64,000 nt of DNA from Thermoplasmatota archaeon (lineage in GTDB: Archaea; Thermoplasmatota; E2; DHVEG-1): positions 10,875 through 74,874 of the forward strand of contig JALOTN010000004.1 of the NCBI GenBank assembly GCA_025457885.1, read 5' to 3'. Every line of letters starts with the position of its first letter. Position 1 is the stretch's first letter. The notes beneath the pieces are model-generated. The model was not told where the DNA came from and did not search any database. It saw nothing but the letters and a program-made list of their open reading frames with translations. This document shows, piece by piece, positions 1 through 20,447 of the stretch. The translations under genes and the position numbers were made by a program.

Positions 1-130
1 TGTCTGGTTCGTAATTCAGTTTCATGTATCGTGGGTTATGGGCAGCTGCCTGCATACTTATCATCAATGAACTGATGATAAGAAATATTCCTATGATTGC
101 GTATCTTCTATATTTCATGGTTTCAAACTC

Positions 131-1765
131 CTATTCTGCGGTGAGATGCCATATCTCACCAGTTGGTAAAAGGGATCCTATGAACCGGGTTGTAACTACA
201 TATATTTCTCCTGATTCGTCCTGTCCGAATCCAAGGATGAAACGTTTCAGAGGTTTTTCGTTTTCGAATGAAAACTCCTGTCGTTCCCATACTCCAGGGT
301 CGGTTTCTGTAAGATAATATATTTTCCCATCAGGTTTGACGAAATCGGTGCTCCAGTCACCAAACACATAGCAGCCAACAAGATTTGGTGATTGATTTCC
401 CCTATAAACATATCCCCCGATTATGGATCTTCCGACGTTATGACTATATTCATAAATCGGTGGTTGCAACGACTCGATACTGATGTTGAGTTCCTCTGCT
501 AAATCAGGATCATAGAGATGAGTACCTTCAAGGATGCGCCAGCCGTAGTTCCCACCGTTTTCCACCAGGTCAATTTCTTCCCATTTATCTTGTCCGACAT
601 CAGCTACAAAAAGGGCTCCAGTGAGACTGTCAAAAGAAAAACGATAGGGATTCCGGAAACCAAATGCATAGATCTCATCAAGACCCTCAGTGCCAACAAA
701 AGGATTGTCTAATGGGATCGCATAGGGGCTGTCTGAGTCGATATCAATCCGAAGGATTTTACCAAGAAGGGTGTTATTGTTCTGGCCATTACCGATGGTT
801 CCATGTTGATCACCAGCACCTCCTCCGTCCCCAAGCCCTATGTAAAGATAACCCTCTGGTCCGAATGCAAGCTGACCACCATTATGATTTGGTTCTGGTT
901 GATCAACTCGTAGAATAATTATCTCTGACAATGGATCTGCTATGTTGGAATCCTCTGATGAGACATGATATTCAGCAATGATACTTTCATGATCCACTCC
1001 TTCTGCAGTCTTCGTGCCGCTATAATAAACAAAGAATCGTCCGTTTATCTCATAATTTGGATGAAAAGCAAGACCGAGCAATCCTCGTTCATCATAGATG
1101 GGATTTACCTTCACCATTTTACTTGTGAGATCTAAGAATGGTGTTTGAAGAAGAACGTCGTTTTCAATAATATAGATCTTTCCTGGTTGGTCCGCGACAA
1201 AGAGACGGTTCGTTCCATCTCCTGCAGTGGTAAGCATCGTTGGTGCCTTCAAACCCGAGGCGATACGATTGAGTGTCGTAGTAAGAGCGTTCACATCCCC
1301 TGGTATCAGACGGACGAAGAAACCTAGCAGGCGGGCACGCGATGTTTTCATTGATGTATTTCCCTCTGATGCATTAATCGTTACTGTTATCGTTGTTTTC
1401 CCAAAACCAAGCACGAATGGAACCTTTATGGTCTCAGTATTACCAGATCGTAAGAGATCTACGGTCCCTCCAGTGTTTTTCCCTACAAGTACGATGCCTC
1501 CATTAAGGATGATTTCCCATGAGAGGTTTGTAAGATTCTCATCTCCGTCGTTTCGGATAACGGCACCGATACCAATACCACCCGTAATCACTTCCACTTC
1601 AAGGGGTGAACCTGCTATCGATGTGTTTTCTTGTTTTGATGGGAGCTTTGCTGCTAGTACGTACATACTTGTAAGAAGAAACACGACGCTGAACAATACT
1701 ATCACAATTTTTTTTCGCATAATAAAAACCTCCTTATTTTTTTTAAAAATAGGGGGGAACCTCAT
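131..1765 (-). CDS. Secreted PQQ-dependent sugar (glucose/sorbosone) dehydrogenase-family beta-propeller protein
   Basis: 544 aa. N-terminal hydrophobic signal/anchor (MRKKIVIVLFSVVFLLTSMYVLAA). SGDH-family motifs GLLGLAFHPNY, NHNGGQLAFGPEGYLYIGLGDGGGAGD, GFRNPYRFSFD. Confidence 0.65.
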   Translation of the reverse strand: MRFPPIFKKNKEVFIMRKKIVIVLFSVVFLLTSMYVLAAKLPSKQENTSIAGSPLEVEVITGGIGIGAVIRNDGDENLTNLSWEIILNGGIVLVGKNTGGTVDLLRSGNTETIKVPFVLGFGKTTITVTINASEGNTSMKTSRARLLGFFVRLIPGDVNALTTTLNRIASGLKAPTMLTTAGDGTNRLFVADQPGKIYIIENDVLLQTPFLDLTSKMVKVNPIYDERGLLGLAFHPNYEINGRFFVYYSGTKTAEGVDHESIIAEYHVSSEDSNIADPLSEIIILRVDQPEPNHNGGQLAFGPEGYLYIGLGDGGGAGDQHGTIGNGQNNNTLLGKILRIDIDSDSPYAIPLDNPFVGTEGLDEIYAFGFRNPYRFSFDSLTGALFVADVGQDKWEEIDLVENGGNYGWRILEGTHLYDPDLAEELNISIESLQPPIYEYSHNVGRSIIGGYVYRGNQSPNLVGCYVFGDWSTDFVKPDGKIYYLTETDPGVWERQEFSFENEKPLKRFILGFGQDESGEIYVVTTRFIGSLLPTGEIWHLTAE

Positions 1766-1877
1766 ATAAAGATTGTGGTAGTGTAAATAAATAAAAAAAA
1801 TGAAATTTTATAACCATAACCTCAAGATTTAAATACCTCGTATCTTTGTTTTAATAAGACACTCGGGAGTTTGAATT

Positions 1878-2786
1878 GTGAAGATTGCTTATGTCAGGCA
1901 GATTATAAAATTAGCACGAATGCCGATTGTTCTGGCGGTCATACCTATTTTTCTTGTCGGAATCCTGTTCGCTCTTCGTTCTGGGGCGTCTTTTTCTGGT
2001 GTAAATTTCCTCTGGGGTTTTTGTATCTTATTCATCATTGAGATAGCAGCGTCCTTTTCAAACGATTATTATGACTATGAAGCAGATAAACACAACAGAC
2101 AATTTGGTTTCTCTGGAGGCAGTGGAGTCTTACTCGAATATCCTGAACTCCTTTCATTTGCAAAATGGGCATCAATCATCATGTTTGTTCTTGCCATCCT
2201 TTTAACAGGTCTGTTTATCATTTTCGCATCACTTCCTTTTTGGGTAATCGTATATATCGGCATCGCCGTGTTTTTTTGCTGGTTTTATACAGCACCACCG
2301 CTTCGTCTTGTTTATCGAGGTCTGGGTGAGATCCCTCACCTGCTCGCAGGAATCATGTTCCCTGGATGGGGATATCTTATTATGACCGGAACAATAACCA
2401 CTGATTTGGTCATATTTGCGATTCCCTTCGGTTTCCTTGGTTTAACAGTGATACTCAATTTTGAGATACCTGACATGGAAGCGGATATCCATGGGGGGAA
2501 ACGAAATCTCATCGTGATGAAAGGTCGATATTTTTCTTTCCTCACCATTTTTTTGCTGTATCTCATTACTTTTCTTTATTTTTTCATCCTTGCTATCTTT
2601 GGATTATTTGAGGATATCCTGAATCCATGGCTGATTACCTTACTTGCTTTTTTCCCCTTATGTATATCTTTTATCTCCATTATAAAAAAGTCAATTCAAA
2701 AAGATGTCGCAACAAAATATGCTATACGAAATGCGATAGCTGGCTTTCTTGCATCGTTTCTCATTATGGCATCTCTTTTATTTTAA
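1878..2786 (+). CDS. UbiA-family polyprenyltransferase (integral membrane)
   Basis: 302 aa, multi-TM. First Asp-rich motif NDYYDYEADKHN (NDxxDxxxD) and second motif EIPDMEAD (DxxxD) are typical of UbiA/MenA/lycopene-elongase prenyltransferases. Lies near the carotenoid genes. Confidence 0.7.
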   Translation: MKIAYVRQIIKLARMPIVLAVIPIFLVGILFALRSGASFSGVNFLWGFCILFIIEIAASFSNDYYDYEADKHNRQFGFSGGSGVLLEYPELLSFAKWASIIMFVLAILLTGLFIIFASLPFWVIVYIGIAVFFCWFYTAPPLRLVYRGLGEIPHLLAGIMFPGWGYLIMTGTITTDLVIFAIPFGFLGLTVILNFEIPDMEADIHGGKRNLIVMKGRYFSFLTIFLLYLITFLYFFILAIFGLFEDILNPWLITLLAFFPLCISFISIIKKSIQKDVATKYAIRNAIAGFLASFLIMASLLF

Positions 2787-2937
2787 CTGAAAACCTTGAG
2801 ATATTGATTGTTTACCACATTTTTAGGGAATCGATATAAATATCTTTGGTAAAATTTATTTAAAGAGCTCTTCTATTTCTAAAATATGGGAGTTACCTCC
2901 TAAACGAGAATCATCTAAATTAAAGGGGAGAAAAAGC

Positions 2938-3756
2938 ATGAAAAAAAGAAATGCAATAGTCTTAGCAATACTGCTGGTATTTTCAAACTTCGTCGTTGTC
3001 GGAGCAGCGATATCTGATCAATTAAAAGATAATACCATTAAACAGAAACATGAGAATCAACCATGGTCAACACTCCAATCAGACGATGACATTACGATTT
3101 CCTTTTCAAAAGCCCCACTGTCCTTAGGAATAAATATCGAAATACAAAACAACAGAAATGTGACCTATCAAGACGTACCATGGAGTTTTCGGGCAAAACC
3201 ACAGATCTCTGGAACAGGACTTGTTTACAAAGACCAAATACGGTCTGGAGTTATCGATCAACTTGAGGCCAATGCACTTGTGACTATTCCATTACGACCA
3301 TTGAAGGGGCAAACTTCGAGTCCTTTTGGGCTTGGGCTGTTCTATTTTAATGCCTCGGTCAGCACGTCAGATACCTTCTTTCGCTCTTCACAACTCTGCT
3401 GGCTGGTGCTCTTTTTCATGGTGAATCTGAAACCAACCTACATGGATATACCACCTGCAGAAGCATACAGCTTATATGAGAATGGGACCTTTGACCTCAT
3501 CATTGATGTGGTCGGTCTGAATATCTATAGCCTTGGTCATCTCCCTGGCGCTGTAAATTACGTCTGGGCTGATGGGACATTAAATGAAACGATTCCTACT
3601 CTTGACAAAAACCTCACCTATCTTGTCTACTGTCACACCGATCCACCTTCCACCGCCAGCGCTCAGGCATTGGTCAATGCAGGGTTTCCCTCCGTCTATC
3701 GATTGGAAGGCAATTATCGAGCATGGGTTGATGCAGGCTACCCTACAGAAACCTAA
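2938..3756 (+). CDS. Secreted protein with C-terminal rhodanese-like domain
   Basis: 272 aa, N-terminal signal peptide. C-terminal region FDLIIDVV...GHLPGAVNY...LVYCHTD...RAWVDAGYP matches the rhodanese fold with its active-site Cys loop. Confidence 0.55.
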   Translation: MKKRNAIVLAILLVFSNFVVVGAAISDQLKDNTIKQKHENQPWSTLQSDDDITISFSKAPLSLGINIEIQNNRNVTYQDVPWSFRAKPQISGTGLVYKDQIRSGVIDQLEANALVTIPLRPLKGQTSSPFGLGLFYFNASVSTSDTFFRSSQLCWLVLFFMVNLKPTYMDIPPAEAYSLYENGTFDLIIDVVGLNIYSLGHLPGAVNYVWADGTLNETIPTLDKNLTYLVYCHTDPPSTASAQALVNAGFPSVYRLEGNYRAWVDAGYPTET

Positions 3757-3845
3757 ACACGTCTTCCTTATTCGCTTCATTAAGCACCGTAACAAATAAA
3801 GTCACATAATCTTCTTAAACCACTGTAATATACGACTAACAAGGT

Positions 3846-4595
3846 TTGAAAGGCGGGAGACATATGGTCATAAACTATCTTATCTTAGATATCCTAATCA
3901 TCTTATTTCCGTTCTTACTTTCATTTAAGTGGAAGTTCGCCTATTATCGATACTACAAGGCATTGTTTCCAGCAATCGCCATCGTCGGAGCAGGTTACAT
4001 TTTCTGGGATGCGATTGTGACTGCAAGAGGAGACTGGTGGTTCAACTATGAGTATCTTTCTGAAATCACCATCATCGGATTACCTCTGGAGGAGATTTTA
4101 TTCTTCATTGTTGTCCCCTATTCCTGTATATTCATCTATGAGAACCTTGAGTATTTCTTTCCAGATAAAAAAACAAGATTCAGCAAGATCTTCTATGTTG
4201 TTTTGATCATATTATTCGTTCTCGGTGGACTTGCGTTCTATCACCAGGATTATACAATCCTTGCTCTGATGTCGTGTGCGTTTTTTTTACTCATCGCGCT
4301 TTGGCGTTTCCCAGACATCCTGCAATCACGGAACTACTGGCTCTACATCGGCATATCTATGATTCCCTTCATAATCTTCAATTACCTGCTCACCTCCACG
4401 CCCATCGTATTGTATAACCCTGCGGCCATCTGGGGTGGTGATGGGGCGTGGAACGGCCGGTTCTTCACTATACCACTCGAAGACTTCTTCTATAATTTCT
4501 CGATGCTATCGTTTTATCTGCTTGTTTACCGGTATTTCAGGAAACGATGGATTCAACCATCTACATCAAAACAAGGATTAAAGGATCACAAATGA
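3846..4595 (+). CDS. crtY: Lycopene cyclase domain protein (fused CrtYc/CrtYd-type)
   Basis: 249 aa polytopic membrane protein. It has two copies of the conserved PxE(E/D) motif of heterodimeric-type lycopene cyclases (GLPLEEILFF and TIPLEDFFY). Located beside crtI/crtB. Confidence 0.6.
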   Translation: MKGGRHMVINYLILDILIILFPFLLSFKWKFAYYRYYKALFPAIAIVGAGYIFWDAIVTARGDWWFNYEYLSEITIIGLPLEEILFFIVVPYSCIFIYENLEYFFPDKKTRFSKIFYVVLIILFVLGGLAFYHQDYTILALMSCAFFLLIALWRFPDILQSRNYWLYIGISMIPFIIFNYLLTSTPIVLYNPAAIWGGDGAWNGRFFTIPLEDFFYNFSMLSFYLLVYRYFRKRWIQPSTSKQGLKDHK

Positions 4596-4608
4596 GTGAT
4601 TCAATGGT

Positions 4609-5124
4609 GTGACCACCATGGATTTTTTTGGAGTGATTCTGGATGGATCTTCGGATCCTTTGCTTTTCGGGATTTTCTTTTTCGTCTATGTCGTGCTCAA
4701 TACCCTTGCCCTGCCTTTCCCAGTGGAACTGGGATTATTCAACCCTGCTTTTCATCCCTTGTTCTTGATAGGTATCCTTGCCGTGGGGCGAGGTGTTGGA
4801 GCGTTTTGTGTTTTTGAAATTGGAGGATTTATCAGAAAAAAGACAAGCACGTGGTCTGTAGGTGCATTCCGGTTACGAAAAACAATCAGCTCTCTTGAGC
4901 GGTTTATCCAACAGTATGGATATTATGCCTTGTTCCTCCTTATGAGCATCCCACTCATGCTGGATTCAGTGGTGCTGTATCTCTTTTCTCTTCTCAATAA
5001 ACGAAAGGATACCAAGGTAGCCCTTGCCCGGCGATGGTTTATCGGTATCACCATTGCAGCAAGTATCCTGCGTGGCACCATCATTCTTTTGGTTGCTGAA
5101 TTTGTAAAAATAATCCTGATATGA
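4609..5124 (+). CDS. Small polytopic membrane protein, unknown function
   Basis: 171 aa, 4-5 predicted TM helices, same strand and tightly spaced after crtY. No recognisable motif. Confidence 0.35.
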   Translation: MTTMDFFGVILDGSSDPLLFGIFFFVYVVLNTLALPFPVELGLFNPAFHPLFLIGILAVGRGVGAFCVFEIGGFIRKKTSTWSVGAFRLRKTISSLERFIQQYGYYALFLLMSIPLMLDSVVLYLFSLLNKRKDTKVALARRWFIGITIAASILRGTIILLVAEFVKIILI

Positions 5125-5183
5125 TATATTTAGTAATACAATAGGTATTACCTCTGGTATCACTTCTGGAGGAACATGTCATC

Positions 5184-6548
5184 ATGGTCTATCGTTCACC
5201 CTGGATCGTCCAATTAAAACGGTCCCGACCTATCCAAAAAGCACACTCCTTGCTCCACCCCGATTGTGTAGTTGTCGGTGGTGGTATCGCTGGGGTTGTC
5301 ACCGCATATTTTATTCTTCGACAGACATCTCATACTATCCTTCTCCTCGAGGCCGATCGTGTCGCCCATGGTGCGACTGGTCATAACGCAGGACAAGTAG
5401 TCAGCTACTTTGAGCGTCCTCTTCATGATATCGCCAGTCAGTTTGGGGCGCCTCTCACCTTAGATGCTTATCATCATCTTCAGGAGACCTGGGGTGTCTT
5501 GGATGATATTATCACCACAGCACACCTAAGGACGCCAGTCACAACATTCACTGGGTACGCTGGATACAGCACGTATCACCAACTTTTGAACCAATTAAAG
5601 ACTCTCCACCTGCTGCGCGATTCAAAAACAACACCAGAAAATCTCCTTCTCCTAAAAGAATCAGACCTTCATGGTAAGATCCCCTCCCTGTATCACCCTT
5701 ACATCAGCCTCATAAAACACCAGGAGTTATTACAACTTCTTGGTACGGGAAATTCACAGTATATCGCTGCTTTTCCCGAAAAAAAAGGATGTACCAACTC
5801 AAGTCTTCTGACCGAAGAACTCGTTGGGTATCTCCTCAGTACCTACCCTGAACGGTTTCATCTTTCAGAGCTTACACCTGTGAAAAGAATTTTGGTCACT
5901 CCAACACAAATTACACTTTCGACACCAGATCAGATCATCAAGACCCCTAGTCTGATTCTCTGCACCAATGGGTATACAACGTATCAGATTGATGCAGAAC
6001 CACTTAAACCGGTTCTCCAAAGATTTCATATTACTTCGACAGTCGGTTACATGAATGGATACCTAGATACTACCCTAAAACCACCGACCGCGACCCAATA
6101 CTTCACAACCCAAAACATCTCTCCAATCGATCCTTATTATTATCTCACGCGACGCATCTATGAACATGGAAGACATGCACATACATTGTTATGCATCGGT
6201 GGACCAGAACATCACTTACCGCAGGATCAACCTTATTCCCCTCATGCACAGTATCTTCCGAACGCACATCATGAAATCGACGCCTTCATTCATACAACCA
6301 GCAGCTATCCTCTTATCAAAACAACACCAGATTTTAAATGGCATGGTCTGATGGGCTATACCCCCACGATGATACGTCTGATCGGACCAGACCCACACTA
6401 TCCCAACCTCTCCTATAATCTTGGTTGCAATGGAGTCGGGATTTTACCATCTATCTATGCGGGAAAACGACTCGGTAACTATCTGGCTGGACGCTCCTTG
6501 AAACCATCTATATTTGATACAAAATTCATGAATAACAAAGAATTTTAA
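5184..6548 (+). CDS. FAD-dependent oxidoreductase (DAO-like)
   Basis: 454 aa. N-terminal dinucleotide-binding motif VVVGGGIAGVVTAYFIL (GxGxxG). Sits between crtY and crtI. Confidence 0.55.
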   Translation: MVYRSPWIVQLKRSRPIQKAHSLLHPDCVVVGGGIAGVVTAYFILRQTSHTILLLEADRVAHGATGHNAGQVVSYFERPLHDIASQFGAPLTLDAYHHLQETWGVLDDIITTAHLRTPVTTFTGYAGYSTYHQLLNQLKTLHLLRDSKTTPENLLLLKESDLHGKIPSLYHPYISLIKHQELLQLLGTGNSQYIAAFPEKKGCTNSSLLTEELVGYLLSTYPERFHLSELTPVKRILVTPTQITLSTPDQIIKTPSLILCTNGYTTYQIDAEPLKPVLQRFHITSTVGYMNGYLDTTLKPPTATQYFTTQNISPIDPYYYLTRRIYEHGRHAHTLLCIGGPEHHLPQDQPYSPHAQYLPNAHHEIDAFIHTTSSYPLIKTTPDFKWHGLMGYTPTMIRLIGPDPHYPNLSYNLGCNGVGILPSIYAGKRLGNYLAGRSLKPSIFDTKFMNNKEF

Positions 6549-6625
6549 TAGAAAATAAATATACTCCTGGAACAAAACTTTCTTTAATATCAAAACTATC
6601 CCTAAAATACGTAACGTGAAACACT

Positions 6626-8092
6626 ATGAAGAAAATAATTATAATCGGTGCAGGTTTTGGAGGAATAGCCGCAGCAGCCCTCCTGGCAAGAGATGGACAT
6701 GATGTCACTGTCGTAGAAAAAAACGATCAACCCGGAGGACGAGCCATCGTCTGGAACGAAAAAGGGTTCGTCTTCGACATGGGGCCATCCTGGTACCTCA
6801 TGCCTGATGTTTTCGAACAGTTCTTTGCTCTCTTTAACAAAAAACCAGAAGACTATTATAAACTCATTCGACTCAACCCAGCCTACCGGGTGTTCTTCGA
6901 TAAAGATGAAATCGTCGATATCTCGCCAGACCTTGAGAAGAACCTTCAACTCTTCGAACGATATCAAAAAGGAGGCCGGGAGCAATTAAAAAAATATCTC
7001 CAGGCTGCAGAATATCAATATACAATAGCAATGAAAGAGTTCATCTACAAGGAATATCGTCATCTCTGGGATTTCTTCAGCCTCCGTCTGTTGTTAAAAG
7101 GTAGTAAACTGCATATCTTCACCAGTCTTGACCGCTATGCGCAACGATACATCACCGATCAGAAATTACGGAAGATCCTTGAATACACCATGGTGTTCCT
7201 TGGAGGCACCCCCTTTGACACCCCTGCTTTATACTCCTTGATGTCCCATGTCGATTTCAACCTGGGCGTCTGGTACCCCGATGGTGGATTTGGAGCTCTT
7301 GCGAGAGGTTTTCAACGCCTCGCGGTTGAACAAGGCGTGAAATTCGAATTCAACACAGAAGTAGAAAAAATAATCGTGAAAAACGGGTCGGTCACTGGTG
7401 TGAAAACTTCTAAAGGAGAGACGTCTGCTGATCTGATCATAGCCAACGCAGATTATCCCTATGTTGAAATGAATCTACTCGAACCAACCTATCAAACCTA
7501 TCCAAAGGAATACTGGGAAAAGAAAGCCATTGCTCCCTCTGCCCTGCTCATGTACCTCGGGGTAAAAGGAAAAATCAAATCTTTTGCGCATCATAACCTA
7601 TATTTTGCCACTGACTGGGAGAAACATTTCCAGACAATATTCCATGAACCCAGCTGGCCAGAAAACCCAAGCTACTACGTCAGCTGTCCCTCAAAATCAG
7701 ATGCCACGGTCGCACCAGCAGATGATGAAAACCTCTTCATCCTGGTTCCGGTTGCTGCTGGATTAGAAGATACACCCCAGGTTAGAGAACGATATTTCAA
7801 CCAAATCATAAATCATTTGGAACTACTCACCGGGGAAAACATCAAGGACCGCATTATTGTCAAACGATTATTCGCCCATAAGGATTTCACCCAGTACTAT
7901 CATGCATACAAAGGGACCGCTCTTGGTCTAGCACATACATTGGGGCAAACCGCTATCTTCCGATGCTCCCATCAGAGTAAAAAAGTCAAAGGACTGTATT
8001 ACACCGGCCATTACACACATCCTGGCATCGGAGTTCCCATGGTAGTGATTTCCTCACAAATCATTGCTGAACAGCTTAGGAGCTCTCCATGA
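6626..8092 (+). CDS. crtI: Phytoene desaturase (CrtI family)
   Basis: 488 aa. N-terminal MKKIIIIGAGFGGIAAAALLARDGHDVTVVEKNDQPGGRA is the canonical CrtI FAD-binding start. Length and C-terminal region are typical. Overlaps crtB by 4 bp. Confidence 0.85.
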   Translation: MKKIIIIGAGFGGIAAAALLARDGHDVTVVEKNDQPGGRAIVWNEKGFVFDMGPSWYLMPDVFEQFFALFNKKPEDYYKLIRLNPAYRVFFDKDEIVDISPDLEKNLQLFERYQKGGREQLKKYLQAAEYQYTIAMKEFIYKEYRHLWDFFSLRLLLKGSKLHIFTSLDRYAQRYITDQKLRKILEYTMVFLGGTPFDTPALYSLMSHVDFNLGVWYPDGGFGALARGFQRLAVEQGVKFEFNTEVEKIIVKNGSVTGVKTSKGETSADLIIANADYPYVEMNLLEPTYQTYPKEYWEKKAIAPSALLMYLGVKGKIKSFAHHNLYFATDWEKHFQTIFHEPSWPENPSYYVSCPSKSDATVAPADDENLFILVPVAAGLEDTPQVRERYFNQIINHLELLTGENIKDRIIVKRLFAHKDFTQYYHAYKGTALGLAHTLGQTAIFRCSHQSKKVKGLYYTGHYTHPGIGVPMVVISSQIIAEQLRSSP

Positions 8093-8982
8093 TTATTGAT
8101 AAGACATTCTTCTCCATCTTCAGAAAAGGAAGCAGGACCTACTTCTACAGCAGCCTGTTCTTCCCCATGCATATCCGTCAGGAGGTCTTCATCCTCTACG
8201 GGTTCGTCCGGAAAACAGACAATTACGTCGACGTCACCCCACAGGACCGTGAAGGTTTTTATTCCTTTAAAAAGAAATATTACGAAGCAAAGAACGGAAA
8301 GGAAACCGGGGATGTCGTCATCGACTCCTTCGTCCGCTTAGCGGAACGGAAAGGATTTCACGATGAATGGGTAGACGCGTTCCTGCATTCCATGGAACTA
8401 GACATCACCAAAACCAAGTACGAGACCCTTGAGGAAGCCTTAGAATATATTTATGGATCTGCTGAGGTCATCGGCTTGATGATGGCACGCATCATCGGTC
8501 TTTCAAAAGAATCCTACGAGTATGCGAAATACCTCGGGCGGGCGATGCAATACATCAACTTCATAAGAGACATCGCAGAGGACCTCAAACTCGGTAGAGT
8601 CTATTTCCCGCAAGTCGATTTACGAAAACACGGGCTGGAGAACCTCACCTATGATCATGTAAAAGACCATCCGGAACAATTCAAACGGTTCCTGCAGACC
8701 CAGCTTGATCATTATTGTCAATGGCAAGAAAAAGCAGAGGAAGGTTATCACTACATCCCAAAACGCTACCTCATCTCTATAAAAACCGCCTCTGAGATGT
8801 ACAACTGGACCGCTGAACAAATCGCCCATCACCCCTTCATCGTTTACGACCTCAAAGTCAAACCGATGATCTCAAAGATACTTCTCACCGTTTTTTCAAA
8901 CCTTATCAACACCATGGGAAAGAAATTCAGCACCAACTTCTGTCATGAAGTCCTACACGAACAACCTCCTCCATCAAAGTAG
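8089..8982 (+). CDS. crtB: Phytoene/squalene synthase family (CrtB)
   Basis: 297 aa. Trans-isoprenyl diphosphate synthase head-to-head family features (YFYSSLFFP, Asp-rich regions, RDIAEDL...GRVYFP). Translationally coupled to crtI. Confidence 0.8.
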   Translation: MIIDKTFFSIFRKGSRTYFYSSLFFPMHIRQEVFILYGFVRKTDNYVDVTPQDREGFYSFKKKYYEAKNGKETGDVVIDSFVRLAERKGFHDEWVDAFLHSMELDITKTKYETLEEALEYIYGSAEVIGLMMARIIGLSKESYEYAKYLGRAMQYINFIRDIAEDLKLGRVYFPQVDLRKHGLENLTYDHVKDHPEQFKRFLQTQLDHYCQWQEKAEEGYHYIPKRYLISIKTASEMYNWTAEQIAHHPFIVYDLKVKPMISKILLTVFSNLINTMGKKFSTNFCHEVLHEQPPPSK

Positions 8983-8987
8983 CTCCT

Positions 8988-9968
8988 ATGAAATCCTTCA
9001 TCAAACCTCGAATCGTTATCAGCAAATGCATTGAATTTGACTTCTGCCGCTACAACAGCCAAATCATCCGCAGCCCAATCGTTAGCACCCTCAAACCCTA
9101 TGTCGAGTTCCAGCCCATCTGCCCTGAAGTAGAAATCCAACTAGGGGTACCAAGAGACCCTATCCGCATCATCGAACAACATACCAACAAAAAGTTAGTA
9201 CAACCAACAACCGGTAGAGATGTCACCGATGCGATGCAAACATTCACCCAGCACTTCCTTGCCTCACTTCAAGGAATTGACGGTTTTTTATTAAAATCAC
9301 AGTCTCCCTCCTGTGGGACGCGAGATGTGAAAATCTATCCAGCGGTCCTCCATTCTGCACCAGTACGCAGGGAAGCAGGATTCTTCGGAGAACAAGTCCT
9401 CCAACGGTTCCCCCATCTTGCCATCGAAGATGAGATGCGACTCCAGAACCCCGTCATCCGACAACACTATCTCACAAAGATATTCACCTTCGCCGCCTTC
9501 CGATCGGTCAAAGACAAAGCATCACTCCAACGGTTATTACAGTTTCACACAGAAAACAAATACCTCCTCATGGGATATAGTCAAAAAGAACTCCGCATCC
9601 TAGGCAATATCCTTGCGAACCAAGAGAAACAACCACTTCCCAAGATGTTCACCGAGTATGAACACCATCTGCATCTAGCGTTTCTTAAGGCACCACGATA
9701 CACCTCCCAGATAAATGTACTGAACCATACCTTTGGATACATCTCAAAAGAGCTCTCCGCTGCAGAAAAAAGGTTTTATGCAGACCTCCTCGAAAAATAC
9801 AAAAATGGACAGATTCCACTCAGCGTCCCAGTCAACCTCATACGCTCCTGGGTCATCCGATTCGAACAAAGCTATCTCTTACCTCAGACCTTTTTCGAAC
9901 CCTACCCTAATCAACTCCTGGACATAGAAGCGATAAAAGCAAGCGAGGTGAGGGATTTCTGGAAGTAA
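8988..9968 (+). CDS. DUF523/DUF1722 (YbgA/TudS-like) protein
   Basis: 326 aa. N-terminal Cys-containing DUF523-like region (ISKCIEFDFCRYN...PICPEV) plus C-terminal DUF1722-like region. ybgA homologs are classically linked to photolyase genes. Confidence 0.55.
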   Translation: MKSFIKPRIVISKCIEFDFCRYNSQIIRSPIVSTLKPYVEFQPICPEVEIQLGVPRDPIRIIEQHTNKKLVQPTTGRDVTDAMQTFTQHFLASLQGIDGFLLKSQSPSCGTRDVKIYPAVLHSAPVRREAGFFGEQVLQRFPHLAIEDEMRLQNPVIRQHYLTKIFTFAAFRSVKDKASLQRLLQFHTENKYLLMGYSQKELRILGNILANQEKQPLPKMFTEYEHHLHLAFLKAPRYTSQINVLNHTFGYISKELSAAEKRFYADLLEKYKNGQIPLSVPVNLIRSWVIRFEQSYLLPQTFFEPYPNQLLDIEAIKASEVRDFWK

Positions 9969-10057
9969 AAAAAACAGATGAACAGAATAACACGACAGAA
10001 CCATCACAGGATCTCCGTCGTCTCATCCACACCCTCCTGTCCAGCCAGCATTTCGCT

Positions 10058-10453
10058 GTGATTGCGACAGAGTCACATCATCACCCCTACACCAGCCTCG
10101 TTTCATTTGTCCCTTCATCGGACGATACTCATCTTTATTTCCCAACAAAAAAAGAGACACAGAAATTTTTTAATATATCAAAAAACCCGCATATCGCTGC
10201 CCTCATCGATAATCGAGAGAACACCCCCGGTGATTTCTCGAAGGCTACCACGGTCATTGCATTAGGAGTTGCCTCTGCAGTAGAGACGAACAAAGAACAT
10301 ATTAGGGAACTTCTCCTCCAAAAACACCCTGATTTATCTGATTTCATCTCTCATCCAGACTGTGCGCTTATCGACATCACCATAACGACCTATCAGATTG
10401 TACAACAATTCGAAAAAGTAAAGATCCTGCGTCTGAGAGATGTACCAGAATGA
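10058..10453 (+). CDS. Pyridoxamine 5'-phosphate oxidase-like FMN-binding split-barrel protein
   Basis: 131 aa as annotated (GTG start). The in-frame upstream peptide RRLIHTLLSSQHFAV resembles the usual N-terminus of this family, so the true start is probably upstream or non-canonical. Overlaps the photolyase start by 4 bp. Confidence 0.45.
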   Translation: MIATESHHHPYTSLVSFVPSSDDTHLYFPTKKETQKFFNISKNPHIAALIDNRENTPGDFSKATTVIALGVASAVETNKEHIRELLLQKHPDLSDFISHPDCALIDITITTYQIVQQFEKVKILRLRDVPE

Positions 10454-11787
10454 TTCAGCAGGAACGCATCCAGCAGCTCAATTCTCATTCCATCGGCTCA
10501 GGAGATTATGTACTCTACTGGATGCAAGCATCACAACGAATTCTAGATAATCATGCGTTACAATACGCGATACAGAAAGCCAATGAATACCAGAAACACC
10601 TCGTAGTTTTTTTTGGTTTGACACCTTCTTTTCCCGAGGCGAACCAAAGACATTACACTTTCATGCTTGAAGGTCTCAAAGAAACACAACAATCGCTTGA
10701 AAAACAAGGTATCACTTTTATCATTCAACCAATCTCACCAGAACAAGGAATCAAGAGACTCGCAACAGATGCATTACTCCTTGTCGTCGATAGAGGGTAC
10801 CTGCGTATTCAACGACAATGGAGACAGATAGTAGCCCAGCAGGTGCGTTGTCCACTACTCCAAGTTGAGACGGATGTCATCGTCCCCATTGATGTTGTGT
10901 CACAGAAAGAAGAATATGCGGCTGCAACCATCAGACCAAAGATACTGAAAAACCTAGAAAAGTTCCTGGTCCCCATCGAACCAGAACCACTTCAAAAAAC
11001 CTGTACGATGCATCATTTCGACTCACTTGACCTTTCGGACATACCCCGTCTTATAACGAACCTTCAAATCGATTCAACCGTGAAACCATCCGCACTATTT
11101 CATGGGGGGACGTCTGCTGCATTGCGATTCCTCCGTCGATTCATCACCCAGAAACTACCATGTTTTTCTGAGTTAAGAAATGACCCGAGCAAAGAATTTT
11201 GTTCCTATCTTAGCCCGTATCTTCATTTCGGTCAAATCTCCCCCTTAACGATCGCATTGAAAATTCGTGCAACAAAGGACCCCAACACTGACGCATTCCT
11301 CGAAGAACTCATCGTGCGAAGGGAGCTGAGTATGAACTATGTATACTTCAACAAAGACTATGATTCCTTCGCTGGTTTACCCTCATGGGCGAAGACAACG
11401 CTTCTCAACCATGTAAAAGACCCTCGACCGTATCTTTATACCGAAGAGGAACTTGAGACTGCAAAGACTCATGACCCGTTCTGGAACGCGGCTCAACGAG
11501 AAATGACACAGACAGGGAAGCTGCAAGGATATATGCGGATGTATTGGGGGAAGAAAATCATTGAATGGACTTCATCACCACAGGAAGCTTTTCAACTGGC
11601 TCTCCGGTTGAATAACAAATATGAACTGGATGGAAGAGACCCCAATGGATTCGCTGGTGTCGCCTGGTGCTTTGGGAAGCACGACCGAGCATGGAAGGAA
11701 CGACCGGTCTTCGGGAAAGTCCGTTACATGAATGACGCGGGTCTGACAAGGAAATTTGATATGACATCCTATATCAGGAACTTATAA
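10450..11787 (+). CDS. phr: Class II CPD deoxyribodipyrimidine photolyase
   Basis: 445 aa. YVLYWMQASQRILDNHALQYAI near the N-terminus and the C-terminal FAD-binding region (GYMRMYWGKK, W-rich) match class II photolyases of archaea/metazoa. Confidence 0.85.
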   Translation: MIQQERIQQLNSHSIGSGDYVLYWMQASQRILDNHALQYAIQKANEYQKHLVVFFGLTPSFPEANQRHYTFMLEGLKETQQSLEKQGITFIIQPISPEQGIKRLATDALLLVVDRGYLRIQRQWRQIVAQQVRCPLLQVETDVIVPIDVVSQKEEYAAATIRPKILKNLEKFLVPIEPEPLQKTCTMHHFDSLDLSDIPRLITNLQIDSTVKPSALFHGGTSAALRFLRRFITQKLPCFSELRNDPSKEFCSYLSPYLHFGQISPLTIALKIRATKDPNTDAFLEELIVRRELSMNYVYFNKDYDSFAGLPSWAKTTLLNHVKDPRPYLYTEEELETAKTHDPFWNAAQREMTQTGKLQGYMRMYWGKKIIEWTSSPQEAFQLALRLNNKYELDGRDPNGFAGVAWCFGKHDRAWKERPVFGKVRYMNDAGLTRKFDMTSYIRNL

Positions 11788-11819: not shown

Positions 11820-12461
11820 TTATGGCACATGCAGTTCTTTGTCATGACGTATTAATGGAGTGTTGATTAAGGCTCTGAGGAAATCTATCGGGGGAAACTG
11901 TTCTTTATACCCAAGGACTGCGACATAGTCCCCTCCTTTCTGGTAGGGGTCCCAATAATAGACGGAATACGTCCCTGTAATGTTGATCGTCTCATCGAAC
12001 CGTGGGCCTTGATAGTATGATTTTCCACCAAATAGCTCATAGAACTGATCCCGTGGGCTCCCCGGTGGAGCATCTGCTTTTATGATCACGCCACACCCCT
12101 CAGGGATCTCAAATGGTAGGGTCTGATTGGGTGGGGGGAGTCCAGGACCAACCAAGGCAAACCACGGAGTGAAATTCGCATAGAACCCATCACAGACCGG
12201 GACAATAACCTCAAGGAAAATCTGTAATGGCTTGTCTTGTATATTGAACTGGTATACATCGATGTCTGTTGCTGGATTTACCCAGTCGGTCTCCAACCAG
12301 GAATACACTGCGATTGATTGGGTGATTGATCTTCTCACCTTGAATGGTTCTTCAATGGTCGAATCCCGACGTTCCAGATAAGGAACGTGAGCAAGAACGG
12401 TCGGCATAAAAAATAAGAAGCTGCTTATGATTACAAAGATAAACAAGCGTAACCTTTTCAT
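11820..12461 (-). CDS. Secreted hypothetical protein
   Basis: 213 aa with N-terminal signal peptide (MKRLRLFIFVIISSFLFFMPTVLA). No recognisable domain. Confidence 0.4.
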   Translation of the reverse strand: MKRLRLFIFVIISSFLFFMPTVLAHVPYLERRDSTIEEPFKVRRSITQSIAVYSWLETDWVNPATDIDVYQFNIQDKPLQIFLEVIVPVCDGFYANFTPWFALVGPGLPPPNQTLPFEIPEGCGVIIKADAPPGSPRDQFYELFGGKSYYQGPRFDETINITGTYSVYYWDPYQKGGDYVAVLGYKEQFPPIDFLRALINTPLIRHDKELHVP

Positions 12462-12550: not shown

Positions 12551-13507
12551 ATGATTTCATTGTATCAAAAACGTGGGGAGAATGTATCCATGTCTGATAT
12601 GAAAATCATGTGTCCGAAATGCCGCCATCAGTTCAATACCACAGGTGCACCAAACGAAAAAATCTATGTCACCTGTCCCTCCTGTAAGACCTATGGGACG
12701 TTTCTGGTCCCAGCAGGAGCCTGCGACCCGAAGAAAGTGGAATGTTTCACAGATATAGGAGATACCCGTTTTCGGAAATTACGGATTTTTAATGCCGTGA
12801 TGGGTGTCATCCATATGATTCAGGGGATCCTTATGCTTATTCTGAGTAATTCTTTTACCTTACCTCTTTGGTACACACGCCCAGAGTATAACGCGGTCAC
12901 CAACACGATTTCACCTGTTTCAGTGGAATTTTTGAAGCTTCCAATTGGACCACTTGTCGCCTTGTTCCTCTTCATGTCGGCAACAGCACACATCCTCCTT
13001 TCCACGGTGCTGTACAAATGGTATGTGAACAATCTGAAGAATCATATCAATCCTGCCCGTTGGTATGAATACTCTTTAAGTGCGTCCCTTATGATTTTCC
13101 TTATTGCCATGTTGGTCACGATTTATGATTTTGGAACGTTACTTGCGCTATTCACCTTGACAGCCGTGATGAACCTTATGGGGTTAATGATGGAGCTTCA
13201 TAATCAGACGACGACAAAGACGAAATGGACGTCGTTTAACATCGGATGCCTCGCAGGATTCATCCCTTGGGTTGTGATCTTCATCCCTCTGGTGATGGCG
13301 TCATCAGTCCCGGATTTTGTCATTGCGATTTTTATTACGATCGCGGTGTTCTTCAACCTCTTCGCCATCAACATGTTCCTTCAGTACAAGCGAATTTGGA
13401 AATGGAAGGATTACCTCTATGGTGAGCGGATGTATATCGTCCTCAGTCTGGTTGCTAAATCTGCTCTCGCCTGGCAGGTGTTCGCCGGAACCCTTCGACC
13501 AATGTAA
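12551..13507 (+). CDS. Heliorhodopsin with N-terminal zinc-ribbon domain
   Basis: 318 aa. Residues ~75-318 align closely with heliorhodopsin 48C12: FNAVMGVIHMIQGILMLILSN, WYEYSLSASLMIFLIA, GCLAGFIPWVVIFIPL, and the TM7 retinal-lysine motif YIVLSLVAKSALAWQVFAGTL, which is near-identical. The N-terminal ~60 aa carries CPKC...CPSC (C4 zinc ribbon). Confidence 0.85.
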   Translation: MISLYQKRGENVSMSDMKIMCPKCRHQFNTTGAPNEKIYVTCPSCKTYGTFLVPAGACDPKKVECFTDIGDTRFRKLRIFNAVMGVIHMIQGILMLILSNSFTLPLWYTRPEYNAVTNTISPVSVEFLKLPIGPLVALFLFMSATAHILLSTVLYKWYVNNLKNHINPARWYEYSLSASLMIFLIAMLVTIYDFGTLLALFTLTAVMNLMGLMMELHNQTTTKTKWTSFNIGCLAGFIPWVVIFIPLVMASSVPDFVIAIFITIAVFFNLFAINMFLQYKRIWKWKDYLYGERMYIVLSLVAKSALAWQVFAGTLRPM

Positions 13508-13567: not shown

Positions 13568-14209
13568 ATGAGCAGCGGCGCGGGTAACCCAGGTATAATA
13601 GATGTCCCCTATTTCCAGCAGACGCGGACCGCAACCTGTGGTCCTGCGTGTCTGATGATGGTGATGAACTATTGGGATTCTTCTTTTGATTTATCAAGGA
13701 AGATGGAATTCCGACTTTGGACACAGAGTTACTCATTGTTTTTACTTGGTGGAACATTTCAATATGAGTTGGCATCCACCGCCGCAGCTTATGGTTTTCA
13801 CCCGGAGATTTCTCAAAAGACAGGATTCTCCACAGAATACCCACGATTCCCACAACTTGCGACACTGATTGAAAACATGGTCTCTTACAAGGCGCGTCGT
13901 ATGAACATCCCTATCCATTATGGATCTGAGAATATTACAGTGATCCGTAAAGCGCTTTCTGAGAACATCCCACCGATTGTTTTTATCAATCTGTTGCCTC
14001 TTCTTGGTGAGAATGTCCTCCATTGGGTCGTTGTCACTGGACTAGATGAACAGTTGGTTCATATAAACGATCCATACATCCCTAAAGGTTTTTTAGGGAA
14101 ACAAAAGAAAAACCATCCTGTTCCAAGAGACGTTTTTTTAAAAGCGATGGAAACACAAACCGGTCGTATCTACCGACTCCCACCATGTGTCGTCCTCATT
14201 AAACCATAG
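13568..14209 (+). CDS. Peptidase C39-like (papain-fold cysteine peptidase) domain protein
   Basis: 213 aa, apparently cytoplasmic. Catalytic Cys context QQTRTATCGPACLMMVMNYW, downstream His (LHWVVVTGLD) and Asp (INDPY) are consistent with a C39-like triad. Confidence 0.5.
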   Translation: MSSGAGNPGIIDVPYFQQTRTATCGPACLMMVMNYWDSSFDLSRKMEFRLWTQSYSLFLLGGTFQYELASTAAAYGFHPEISQKTGFSTEYPRFPQLATLIENMVSYKARRMNIPIHYGSENITVIRKALSENIPPIVFINLLPLLGENVLHWVVVTGLDEQLVHINDPYIPKGFLGKQKKNHPVPRDVFLKAMETQTGRIYRLPPCVVLIKP

Positions 14210-14274: not shown

Positions 14275-15564
14275 ATGCGGATTCTTATCACGGATGAAAT
14301 GAGCCTTAGTACGGTCTTTACTCCTTTTGATCGTTCGTTTCTCTATTCGTTTTCATTTATTCCAACTGTGATTACTGCACGACAGTTGGCTGCGGTGACA
14401 CCCTCAGCCCATCTAGTGACAATCCAAGAAGGAAACCGACCTATCGATTATGATGCATCCTATGATGTGGTACATATAAATTTCAAAACCGCGCTTGCTC
14501 CCCGGGCGTATGAGGTTGCTGATGCGTTCCGGAAGAGAGGAAATCGTGTCATCCTCAGTGGGTATCATCCCTCTGCTCTGCCTGATGAGGCGATGCAACA
14601 TGCGGATGGAATCATAATTGGTGATGCTATCACCCTCTGGCCGGTCGTGGTAAGAGACCTTGAAAATAATACACTCCGACCTCTGTACACCTCTGCTGAT
14701 ACCCCTGAGACACTAATTCTTCCCTCGACATCTTCTGTTACACTGAAGAGTCTTCAATTGACCAATTCCATTGAGGCGACTCGTGGTTGTCCCCATAAAT
14801 GTGATTTCTGTCAGGATTCAAATATTCGAGATGGATCTATGTTTCGCACCCGGTCTCTTGATGATGTCATTGAAGAGGTCGCCTCCCTTCAGCAAAAAGT
14901 ATTTTTCTTCACTGATTTTTCGTTGACTATCGATTTAGCGTATACGAAAGAGTTGTTTCGTTGTCTACGACCGTTGAAAAAGAAGTTTATCTGCGGCGGG
15001 AACATTGATGTTCTTGGTGAAGATGAAGAGCTGCTTCGATTGTCTCATGAGGCTGGATGCATTGAATGGATCAGTGGTTTTGAAACGTTTTCCCAGGAAT
15101 CACTTGATGGTGCGCATAAAAAATCAAACATCGTGGATGACTATACAAGGGCTGTGAAGAATATCCATAAACACAGGATGGCTGTGTTTGGAACATTCGT
15201 CCTTGGTTTTGATGAAGACACCCCCGATATCTTTCAGACGATGCAAACCCACATTGGGAGGCTTGGGATTGATGCAGTAAATTTTGCTCTTCTCACACCC
15301 TACCCAGGGACTCCCTTGTTCTCGCGGTTAGAAAAAGAGGGACGAATACTCACGAAGGATTGGTCATTATATAATCGGAAGAATGTTGTATTTGCACCAA
15401 AGAACATAACAAAAAAAGAACTGGAGGAAGGATTTCGAACCATCACCCGATCGTTTAGTTCCCTTCCTTCGATGGGATATCGAACCGTCCGAAGTCTAAG
15501 TCTAGGAGTGTATCCCTGTCTAGCAACCTTTGCTGGAAACCTCGGACAATATATGAAAACGTGA
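14275..15564 (+). CDS. B12-binding domain-containing radical SAM enzyme
   Basis: 429 aa. N-terminal Rossmann-like cobalamin-binding region, then radical SAM CxxxCxxC (ATRGCPHKCDFCQDS). C-terminal region typical of the class B family. Confidence 0.75.
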   Translation: MRILITDEMSLSTVFTPFDRSFLYSFSFIPTVITARQLAAVTPSAHLVTIQEGNRPIDYDASYDVVHINFKTALAPRAYEVADAFRKRGNRVILSGYHPSALPDEAMQHADGIIIGDAITLWPVVVRDLENNTLRPLYTSADTPETLILPSTSSVTLKSLQLTNSIEATRGCPHKCDFCQDSNIRDGSMFRTRSLDDVIEEVASLQQKVFFFTDFSLTIDLAYTKELFRCLRPLKKKFICGGNIDVLGEDEELLRLSHEAGCIEWISGFETFSQESLDGAHKKSNIVDDYTRAVKNIHKHRMAVFGTFVLGFDEDTPDIFQTMQTHIGRLGIDAVNFALLTPYPGTPLFSRLEKEGRILTKDWSLYNRKNVVFAPKNITKKELEEGFRTITRSFSSLPSMGYRTVRSLSLGVYPCLATFAGNLGQYMKT

Positions 15565-19751: not shown

Positions 19752-20447
19752 GTGAATCCTGCGAAAAAACCATCTGAGACGATGCCTCAACAGTTTCATT
19801 TTCATGATTTAGTAATCTCCTTACATCCTGAGGTCTATGATCCTGCAGAGGATTCCTTCCTCTTGCTTGAATCTCTCATGATTAGCCCAAAGGACACAAT
19901 TTTAGAGCTAGGCACTGGGTGTGGTCTGATCGCCTTAGCCTGTGCCTTTCAAGGAGCAACGGTGGTCTGTACAGATATCAATCCGTATGCCGTCCAACTT
20001 ACCCGTCAGAACATCGAAAAAAACAGCCATCTTCTCAAAGGAGTAATCACCGTTCGACAAGGAGATTTGTTTTCCATGGTGAAAAACTCGGAACGATTCA
20101 ACTTGATTCTGTTCAATCCTCCCTATCTTCCCACGAAAAAAAACGAAAGAACAGACACCTGGTTCAATGTTGCGACCGATGGAGGACCCACCGGTCTGCG
20201 GCTGACCAAACAATTCCTTCATGGCCTCCGTCAGCATCTTCAGCCAGATGGTGCTGGATATTTCATCTTCAGCTCCTTGTCGAACCGGATTCTTCTGGAG
20301 AAATACCTTAAAAAGGAACAGCTCTCCTCAACGATTCTTACCACAAAACGATATGACGGGGAGGACCTTGACGTCTACCGCGTCACTCCGACAGCTTCAA
20401 ATCAACAAAAAGAGTTACGTTCCCCAACTGAGGCACGCACCACATGA
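19752..20447 (+). CDS. HemK/Mtq2-type protein N5-glutamine methyltransferase-like class I SAM MTase
   Basis: 231 aa. EVYDPAEDSFLL, the SAM motif LELGTGCGLIALA, and the NPPY motif (ILFNPPYLP) are characteristic of the HemK/Mtq2 family. GTG start, with an alternative ATG at 19782. Confidence 0.7.
   Translation: MNPAKKPSETMPQQFHFHDLVISLHPEVYDPAEDSFLLLESLMISPKDTILELGTGCGLIALACAFQGATVVCTDINPYAVQLTRQNIEKNSHLLKGVITVRQGDLFSMVKNSERFNLILFNPPYLPTKKNERTDTWFNVATDGGPTGLRLTKQFLHGLRQHLQPDGAGYFIFSSLSNRILLEKYLKKEQLSSTILTTKRYDGEDLDVYRVTPTASNQQKELRSPTEARTT

Follow-up and report, generated by a model that had tools for sequence, protein, structure and literature searches.

A conserved, probable light-response island in Thermoplasmatota archaea

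The heliorhodopsin gene of a Thermoplasmatota archaeon (assembly GCA_025457885.1; contig JALOTN010000004.1) is preceded by a string of genes with predicted roles in carotenoid biosynthesis, tRNA de-modification and DNA repair, all located within the 64 kb stretch of DNA analysed here, which is referred to below as the window. We interpret this string, which takes in positions 1878-11787 of the window together with the flanking genes, as a modular and conserved light-response and photoprotection island of Thermoplasmatota archaea with TaHeR-type heliorhodopsins, and assign this interpretation a probability of about 75%. The identities of the genes and their synteny are established by homology, and from these we infer a regulon that responds to light and ultraviolet (UV) stress. 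Islands of this type have already been described in two papers (PMC8612252; PMC9585477). An earlier reading of the sequence (the original prediction) had likewise proposed a light-response island, and the comparisons made here support it.

Gene families in the window were assigned on the basis of an open reading frame (ORF) map together with Pfam and NCBIfam scans. All of the genes named in the original prediction are real ORFs on the + strand, with the coordinates it gave, and belong to the families proposed, but a further gene (2938..3756, +) had been left out. It encodes a 272 amino acid (aa) protein that is hydrophobic at its N-terminus and has a rhodanese domain at its C-terminus (Pfam Rhodanese, residues 173-265; e-value: 8e-13). 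The string had also been placed immediately upstream of the heliorhodopsin gene; its location on the + strand is confirmed, but an opposite-strand gene (11820..12461, -) sits between the photolyase gene (phr) and the heliorhodopsin gene.

Homologs of every island gene were mapped on 79 metagenome loci, which were retrieved using the UbiA-superfamily prenyltransferase of the island as anchor. The gene order of the window is found again on many independent metagenome contigs, with protein identities of 58-86%, and the arrangement is therefore not due to chance. In the close clade, whose UbiA proteins are 62-86% identical, the order begins with genes for a SOUL protein (-), a LEA_2-like protein (-), CrtZ (+), a GSDH-like protein (-), UbiA (+), the rhodanese-domain protein, CrtYcd, and a cassette of a 171-aa membrane protein and a DAO-family oxidoreductase. 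It continues with CrtI, CrtB, RudS, a PNPOx-like protein, the photolyase, a 213-aa protein (-), the heliorhodopsin (+), and finally a C39-like peptidase and a B12-binding radical SAM protein. The rhodanese-domain gene, the 171-aa/DAO cassette, phr and the C39-like and radical SAM genes are present in some loci and missing in others.

Neighbor counts were made for the 38 UbiA-anchored loci of at least 8 kb. In 24 of these loci the UbiA gene has the GSDH-like gene nearby, in 22 the SOUL gene, in 20 crtB, in 19 crtZ and in 18 crtI, while crtY and the PNPOx-like gene each occur in 17. The heliorhodopsin gene accompanies UbiA in 15/38 loci, RudS in 14/38, and the rhodanese-domain gene in ten loci drawn from both the close and the distant clade. 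The photolyase gene is present in 8/38 loci and is missing from several otherwise identical islands (L008, L135, L103, L120 and L122). Genes encoding Brp, CruF or LyeJ are near UbiA in 0/38 loci.

The left part of the island extends beyond the window. Contigs L177 and L178 share 99.8-99.96% identity with window positions 1-5021 and represent the same population. To the left of position 1 they carry a crtZ gene (L177:3546-3986; L178:5267-5746), coding for a 159-aa protein with the usual histidine motifs, and beyond it genes for a LEA_2-like protein of 409 aa, a SOUL haem-binding protein and a Pyr_redox_2 family (pyridine-nucleotide disulfide) oxidoreductase. As the near-identical contigs carry crtZ and the LEA_2-like and SOUL genes just past position 1, the island is cut by the left edge of the window. 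Within the window, the GSDH-like gene (131..1765, -) is divergent from the UbiA gene and encodes a 544-aa protein with a pyrroloquinoline quinone-type glucose/sorbosone dehydrogenase fold (Pfam PF07995; e-value: 1e-40).

The heliorhodopsins with an N-terminal zinc ribbon (Znf-HeR) were described as a class by Bulzu et al. 2021, and those of the Thermoplasmatales are flanked by carotenoid, photolyase and UvdE genes (PMC8612252). In subgroup E of the Thermoprofundales, wherever there is a heliorhodopsin there are also carotenoid and PhrB/UvsE genes (PMC9585477). The island described here resembles these clusters in its zinc-ribbon, TaHeR-like heliorhodopsin, in its lycopene cyclase, phytoene desaturase, SQS_PSY and photolyase genes, and in belonging to the same phylum. 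It differs in that no UvdE/UvsE gene was seen in the window, while RudS, the rhodanese gene, the DAO cassette and the constant 213-aa neighbor were not discussed in either paper.

Carotenoid biosynthesis

The island encodes the enzymes of a predicted pathway to β-carotene. The phytoene synthase gene crtB (8089..8982, +; Pfam SQS_PSY; e-value: 5e-51) overlaps by 4 bp with crtI (6626..8092, +), the product of which is a phytoene desaturase of the archaeal CrtI/CrtD ('CrtID') type. The latter protein passes the NCBIfam equivalog NF058655 (709.4 bits; cut-off: 640) and shares 46% amino acid identity with the CrtI protein of the Halarchaeum crtB-crtI-lyeJ-cruF (bacterioruberin) cluster. A fused two-domain lycopene cyclase of the CrtYcd type (3846..4595, +) matches Pfam Lycopene_cyc in two stretches (92 bits) and TIGR03462 (88.7 bits). 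In the identical contig L001 the cyclase product is called as 243 aa, and translation likely starts at the ATG at position 3864. A tblastn search with the window cyclase gave no match in plasmids. In the related loci, the fused CrtYcd cyclase co-occurs with the β-ring hydroxylase CrtZ.

By these families, CrtB would convert geranylgeranyl diphosphate to phytoene, the CrtI/CrtD-type desaturase would convert phytoene to lycopene, and the fused CrtYcd would close the β rings to yield β-carotene, as had been proposed in the original prediction. CrtZ would then hydroxylate β-carotene to zeaxanthin. Since crtZ is located just beyond the left edge, a few hundred bases outside the window, zeaxanthin is probably the end product of the pathway.

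A comparable arrangement is found in the haloarchaeal bacterioruberin cluster crtB-crtI/D-lyeJ-cruF (Haloarcula japonica c0507-c0505, with plasmid copies in Halarchaeum and Halocatena), where a crtB gene and a UbiA-family gene likewise form part of one string and the desaturase belongs to the same NF058655 family. In contrast to that cluster, the UbiA protein of the island is not a LyeJ, there being no match to NF009516, and CruF is absent, with a cyclase and CrtZ found instead. With the cyclase and CrtZ in place of CruF and LyeJ, the pathway is predicted to lead to a C40 xanthophyll and not to a C50 carotenoid.

RudS, PNPOx-like protein and photolyase

The gene downstream of crtB (8988..9968, +) encodes a TudS domain followed by a DUF1722 domain (DUF523+DUF1722; PF04463, e-value: 2e-34; PF08349, e-value: 1.4e-39). 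In the original prediction this gene was termed ybgA-like and was said to be of no known function. PF04463 is now named '2-thiouracil desulfurase' in Pfam, and the TudS-DUF1722 fusion was characterised in 2024 as RudS, a [4Fe-4S] tRNA 4-thiouridine desulfidase, which shortens the UVA-induced growth delay and whose gene often shares a light-responsive operon with genes for photolyase or carotenoid synthesis (PMC11417400), so that the earlier statement no longer holds. The island protein matches the TudS structure 6z92 over residues 6-112, and its residues Cys14, Cys45 and Cys109 align with Cys12/44/110 of RudS_ST and Cys10/43/104 of TudS in the published ligand table (PMC11417400). We therefore predict the product to be a RudS-type tRNA 4-thiouridine de-modifying enzyme. 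E. coli YbgA consists of the DUF1722 half alone, unlike the two-domain protein in the window. The bacterial RudS operons share with the island a TudS-DUF1722 fusion located beside photolyase and crt genes, with the three cluster cysteines retained, but here the host is an archaeon and no LitR/MerR B12 regulator was seen (PMC11417400).

Downstream of the RudS gene, a 131-aa PNPOx-like split-barrel protein (10058..10453, +; Pfam PNPOx_N, 37 bits) is encoded with a 4-bp overlap with phr (10450..11787, +). The phr product is a class II cyclobutane pyrimidine dimer (CPD) photolyase, which matches Pfam DNA_photolyase and passes TIGR00591 (phr2) over its full length (551.4 bits; cut-off: 550.05). In Trichococcus flocculiformis, where the heliorhodopsin gene is likewise close to a CPD photolyase gene, the heliorhodopsin has been shown to enhance photolyase activity (PMC9769723). 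The island photolyase differs in being of class II and in being missing from several islands. By this analogy, a role for the heliorhodopsin as a helper of the photolyase is plausible here too.

Heliorhodopsin and the source of retinal

The heliorhodopsin (12551..13507, +; Pfam Heliorhodopsin, 312.6 bits) carries an N-terminal extension with a CxxC...CxxC zinc ribbon and aligns over residues 68-318 with TaHeR of Thermoplasmatales archaeon SG8-52-1 (PDB 6IS6; e-value: 1.9e-118). In this alignment the Schiff-base lysine motif SLVAKSALAWQ is conserved. The heliorhodopsin thus keeps its lysine and therefore needs retinal.

Enzymes forming retinal were sought by scanning all window ORFs of at least 150 aa against Pfam, and by six-frame tblastn with the haloarchaeal Brp of Halobaculum. 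None of these ORFs matched the Pfam families BCD (Blh/Brp) or RPE65 (carotenoid cleavage oxygenases), and Brp gave no tblastn match in the window at an e-value of 5 or below. As such, the claim of the original prediction that the window contains neither a Blh/Brp-type enzyme nor a carotenoid cleavage oxygenase is confirmed. Brp-like, CruF and LyeJ sequences are furthermore absent from the 79 related loci. As the island is without a known β-carotene cleavage enzyme, retinal would have to come from a gene elsewhere, from a novel enzyme or from the environment. The gap at the retinal step is real and has already been published for heliorhodopsin genomes: blh is rare among the neighbors of heliorhodopsin genes and in their genomes, from which an unknown retinal pathway was inferred (bioRxiv 10.1101/2021.02.16.431466), and in Aurantimicrobium retinal is made although none of the known genes is present (PMC7734400). 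No newly described retinal enzyme other than Blh turned up in a search of the literature.

The explanation that a canonical blh/brp or carotenoid cleavage oxygenase gene is located elsewhere in the genome, or that retinal is taken up from neighboring organisms, is a serious one, although we place it somewhat below an even chance. The window is a small part of the genome. Shihoya et al., in their 2019 work on the TaHeR structure, reportedly proposed the capture of environmental retinal through a fenestration of the protein, which counts in favor of uptake. Retinal uptake has also been proposed for rhodopsin-bearing Saccharibacteria (bioRxiv 10.1101/2022.02.13.480300). Against this explanation, blh co-occurs with heliorhodopsin mostly where another rhodopsin is present (bioRxiv 10.1101/2021.02.16.431466), the 79 related loci hold no Brp-like sequence, and the Aurantimicrobium case shows that retinal can be made in the absence of the known genes.

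A doubtful, but not negligible, proposal is that zeaxanthin, beyond its potential as a photoprotectant and the role of its pathway in supplying the retinal precursor, acts as a second chromophore (antenna) at a lateral fenestration of the heliorhodopsin. In a 2025 preprint, a conserved fenestration was reported in TaHeR, and heliorhodopsins including TaHeR were proposed to bind xanthophylls, of which zeaxanthin gave the best docking result (10.1101/2025.11.27.691015). TaHeR is closely related to the window heliorhodopsin and, in many loci, a heliorhodopsin gene is co-located with a CrtZ-containing pathway. The fixation of a predicted zeaxanthin pathway beside the heliorhodopsin gene would fit the xanthophyll-binding proposal, with an endogenous source of the pigment. 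The preprint, however, is based on structure comparison and docking, and it invokes exogenous carotenoids. The island also holds DNA-repair and tRNA-related genes, which fits a general light-stress regulon.

Two genes come after the heliorhodopsin gene in the window, coding for a C39-like peptidase (DUF3335; 13568-14209, +) and a B12-binding radical SAM protein (14275-15564, +). The pair is also found in this position in L008 and L099/L100, with the peptidase alone present in L103 and L139, and is absent after the heliorhodopsin gene in L135 and in the distant clade. A PAS-PAS-HisKA-HATPase histidine kinase is encoded 3 kb from the heliorhodopsin gene (16729-18588, -), and in the distant clade the island itself includes genes for PAS/DUF835 proteins (L003 and L005). 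These proteins are possible signalling partners.

The 213-aa neighbor of the heliorhodopsin

The most constant neighbor of the heliorhodopsin gene in the mapped loci is the opposite-strand gene (11820..12461, -) that separates it from phr. In the close clade the two genes are divergent, whereas in the distant clade they are co-directional and abut each other. The translated product is a secreted protein of 213 aa without a Pfam match. Among 120 listed of its 486 homologs, none carries a functional name or a Pfam domain, and those with an organism name belong to the Thermoplasmatota. Two motifs are invariant in 28 homologs, namely AHVPY(L/I)E, which directly follows the predicted signal peptide, and ELH at the C-terminus. 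The position of a histidine as the predicted first mature residue suggests a metal site. The AlphaFold2 model of the protein is a β-sandwich, for which comparison against the PDB gave no convincing structural match (best TM-score: 0.38).

The UbiA-superfamily prenyltransferase

The anchor of the island comparison, a UbiA-superfamily prenyltransferase (1878..2786, +), matches Pfam PF01040 (76.5 bits; gathering threshold: 34.2) and retains the NDxxDxxxD motif as NDYYDYEAD, with residues N62, D63, D66 and D70 invariant in 25 homologs. Its best NCBIfam models are those for MenA, the 1,4-dihydroxy-2-naphthoate polyprenyltransferase, on which it scores 62.9-68.8 bits against cut-offs of 264-316, and on TIGR00751 it scores 40 bits against a cut-off of 102. 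The protein thus passes none of these curated MenA equivalogs, its scores falling far under their cut-offs. The nearest solved structures are those of chlorophyll synthase and UBIAD1 (e-values: 1e-4 to 4e-3). By these comparisons, the protein is placed in a separate, remotely MenA-like branch of prenyltransferases.

According to the original prediction, this enzyme might be a lycopene elongase of the LyeJ/CrtEb type, diverting lycopene to C45/C50 carotenoids, which we consider very improbable. The idea draws on the fact that in roughly half of the 38 loci the gene adjoins or forms part of a crt string, on the haloarchaeal CrtI/CrtD type of the island desaturase, as used for bacterioruberin, and on bacterioruberin gene sets reported in some Thermoprofundales (PMC9585477). 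Syntenic LyeJ and CruF copies from haloarchaeal plasmid clusters served as references. The Halarchaeum LyeJ, encoded in the crtB-crtI-lyeJ-cruF cluster, scores 397.5 bits on NF009516 (cut-off: 205) and also matches NF010119 and NF009608 below their cut-offs, whereas the UbiA protein of the island gave no match to any of the three models even at an e-value of up to 10 and falls outside the LyeJ/CrtEb family. Two of its relatives (P0107 and P0112) reach 33 bits on NF009516, and the BLASTP similarity between the island protein and LyeJ (27% amino acid identity over 113 aa; e-value: 0.002) is at the level of the superfamily. The partner enzyme CruF has no match in the window (e-value of 5 or below) or in the 79 related loci (e-value of 1e-5 or below). 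Furthermore, several close homologs of the UbiA protein (62-66% amino acid identity) occur with the GSDH-like gene alone beside them and no crt gene within 9 kb (L116-L119 and L121), and the adjacent fused two-domain cyclase, together with CrtZ, points to a C40 β-ring pathway.

A 276-aa gene following UbiA in locus L003 gave a weak tblastn match as a CruF candidate (e-value: 0.021), but was dropped as Pfam finds nothing in its protein product, and an impression that this protein is TspO-like was not supported.

The steadiest neighbor of the UbiA gene in the close clade is a divergent GSDH-like gene, which is retained even when crt genes are not present; in the distant clade it is a SOUL gene, likewise divergent. 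The linkage of the UbiA gene to the GSDH-like or SOUL gene is no weaker than its linkage to the crt genes. What was counted as gains of 'BchG' and 'BchE' in subgroup E of the Thermoprofundales (PMC9585477) is probably this UbiA gene and the B12-binding radical SAM gene by the heliorhodopsin gene.

It is very improbable, and slightly more so than the elongase, that the island is self-sufficient for both chromophores, with zeaxanthin as antenna and retinal produced by a cleavage enzyme from a family not yet tied to carotenoids. The candidates for such an enzyme would be the UbiA protein, the 213-aa protein with its invariant histidine, and the SOUL or PNPOx-like proteins, while the DAO cassette would be a poor candidate.

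An accessory cassette between crtY and crtI

Between crtY and crtI, the window carries genes for a 171-aa polytopic membrane protein (4609..5124, +), which matches Pfam VTT_dom below the gathering threshold (23.7 bits versus 33.9; e-value: 7e-5), and a 454-aa flavin adenine dinucleotide (FAD) oxidoreductase of the DAO family (5184..6548, +; Pfam PF01266, 83.4 bits). The AlphaFold2 model of the flavoprotein (pLDDT: 87) was compared by Foldseek, the top hits being monomeric sarcosine oxidase, glycine oxidase, MTOX, NikD, D-arginine dehydrogenase and L-amino-acid deaminase. All of the top 50 hits are DAAO-family proteins (e-values of approximately 1e-17; TM-scores of 0.57-0.65), the top hits named above having TM-scores of approximately 0.62 and 12-15% amino acid identity. 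The enzymes so named oxidise the C-N bonds of small amines and do not act on polyenes.

The flavoprotein belongs to a large family, with 3009 matches in the homolog search and relatives in 522 GTDB species. The best 80 of the GTDB relatives (40-45% amino acid identity) are nearly all from Patescibacteria, the exceptions being Thermoplasmatota locus L019 and L018, both at 55% identity. None of the Patescibacteria loci among these 80 carries a crt or heliorhodopsin gene. Given the amine oxidase fold predicted by the model and the mainly patescibacterial family, the flavoprotein is unlikely to act on carotenoids. A conserved partner of the DAO gene was sought in the 80 GTDB loci (L020-L097 being Patescibacteria), but no neighbor family is found in more than 13 of them. 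A UvrD/UvrB context, first met in L010, proved not to be general, as UvrB is near the DAO gene in 6-7/80 loci, in one subclade alone. A DedA/VTT protein gene directly adjoins the DAO gene in 5/80 loci, and a predicted polytopic membrane protein in 8/80. An hhalign comparison of the 171-aa protein with five DedA proteins encoded beside Patescibacteria DAO genes returned a probability of 0.1%, from very shallow profiles.

In L009 and L018, where the DAO homologs are 54-55% identical and the metagenome-assembled genome is titled 'delta proteobacterium', genes for a DPRP (photolyase-related) protein, an amine oxidase, a small ORF and the DAO protein are clustered, and further on for a PNPOx-like protein and MsrA. 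The PNPOx-like homolog near the DAO gene in L018 is 39% identical to that of the window. This hints that the DAO and PNPOx-like genes travel with light and oxidative-stress genes.

The cassette is found between crtY and crtI in the window and in L008, L103, L108 and L120, while in L019 the DAO gene occupies this position without the 171-aa gene. The latter occurs solely together with the DAO gene in the mapped loci. The cassette is missing both from the loci of the closest UbiA relatives and from the majority of related heliorhodopsin islands (for example, L139, L135, L099/L100, L115, L122, L130, L150, L154, L156 and L176). An in-frame remnant in L101 (9348-9878) and L102 (5441-5971), in which the first ~30 residues of the 171-aa protein are fused to the last ~130 of the DAO protein, shows that the cassette decays in some lineages. 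We conclude that the pair is an accessory, probably horizontally acquired module, which would be co-expressed with the light regulon.

The suggestion of the original prediction that the flavoprotein, the 171-aa protein or both perform a non-canonical, carotenoid-cleaving and retinal-forming step in place of Blh is scarcely credible: the retention of the pair between the cyclase and desaturase genes in relatives with as little as 55% identity, the lack of a known cleavage enzyme in the window and the postulated unknown retinal pathway (bioRxiv 10.1101/2021.02.16.431466; PMC7734400) speak for it, but the fold is that of amine and amino acid oxidases with no carotenoid enzyme among the matches, the best 80 relatives come almost entirely from Patescibacteria without crt or heliorhodopsin genes, and most related heliorhodopsin islands lack the cassette, L101 and L102 retaining the remnant alone.

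Additional genes in the window

Outside the island, a string of genes on the + strand (19752-22812) codes for a methyltransferase and MtrA-like, MtrH-like and MetE-like (Meth_synt_2) proteins in this Thermoplasmatota genome, and may constitute a corrinoid-dependent methyl-transfer module. The window also contains an archaeal ribosomal protein operon. Ribosomal protein L32e has an N-terminal helix-hairpin-helix (HhH) domain and S3 a C-terminal one (40589-41293, -, and 45940-46821, -), and an HhH domain is the sole Pfam match of a 903-aa protein (58443-61154, -). Scans of the window for Rfam families and tRNAs gave no hits. The named homologs of the UbiA, flavoprotein and 213-aa proteins derive from metagenome-assembled genomes of 'Candidatus Thermoplasmatota archaeon' or from 'Thermoplasmatales archaeon SG8-52-3'.

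Proposed biological role of the island

As a modular light-response and photoprotection island, the gene set would be expressed in light, where its products would serve to quench photo-oxidative damage, to repair lesions caused by UV and to sustain translation. The carotenoid would protect the membrane and may serve the heliorhodopsin, to which the xanthophyll may also bind. The photolyase would repair cyclobutane dimers, while RudS, by removing a tRNA base that UVA can crosslink, would allow translation to go on. The heliorhodopsin itself would act as a light sensor or as a helper of the island enzymes.

Several points weigh against this interpretation. Over a range of 55-100% identity, the UbiA and DAO genes keep their place within or next to the crt string, which on sequence alone leaves room for a role in carotenoid tailoring. 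The absence of blh is a property of the window, which covers a few per cent of the genome, and of the related islands, rather than of the organism. The β-cyclase specificity of CrtYcd is deduced from the co-occurring CrtZ, while light induction and operon structure are deduced from gene spacing and synteny.

Both the island and the missing-blh puzzle are already in print and, as a discovery, the locus is ordinary. How microbes with heliorhodopsin as their only rhodopsin obtain retinal is nevertheless a real question, for which the island is a natural place to look. The analysis removes the two most tempting retinal and carotenoid candidates, namely the 'elongase' and the in-operon flavoprotein, and places the ybgA-like gene among those with a known function in the UVA response. 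A pathway that probably ends in zeaxanthin also bears on the recent xanthophyll-antenna proposal for heliorhodopsins. The constant members without an assigned role, the UbiA enzyme and the 213-aa secreted protein, would be the better experimental targets.

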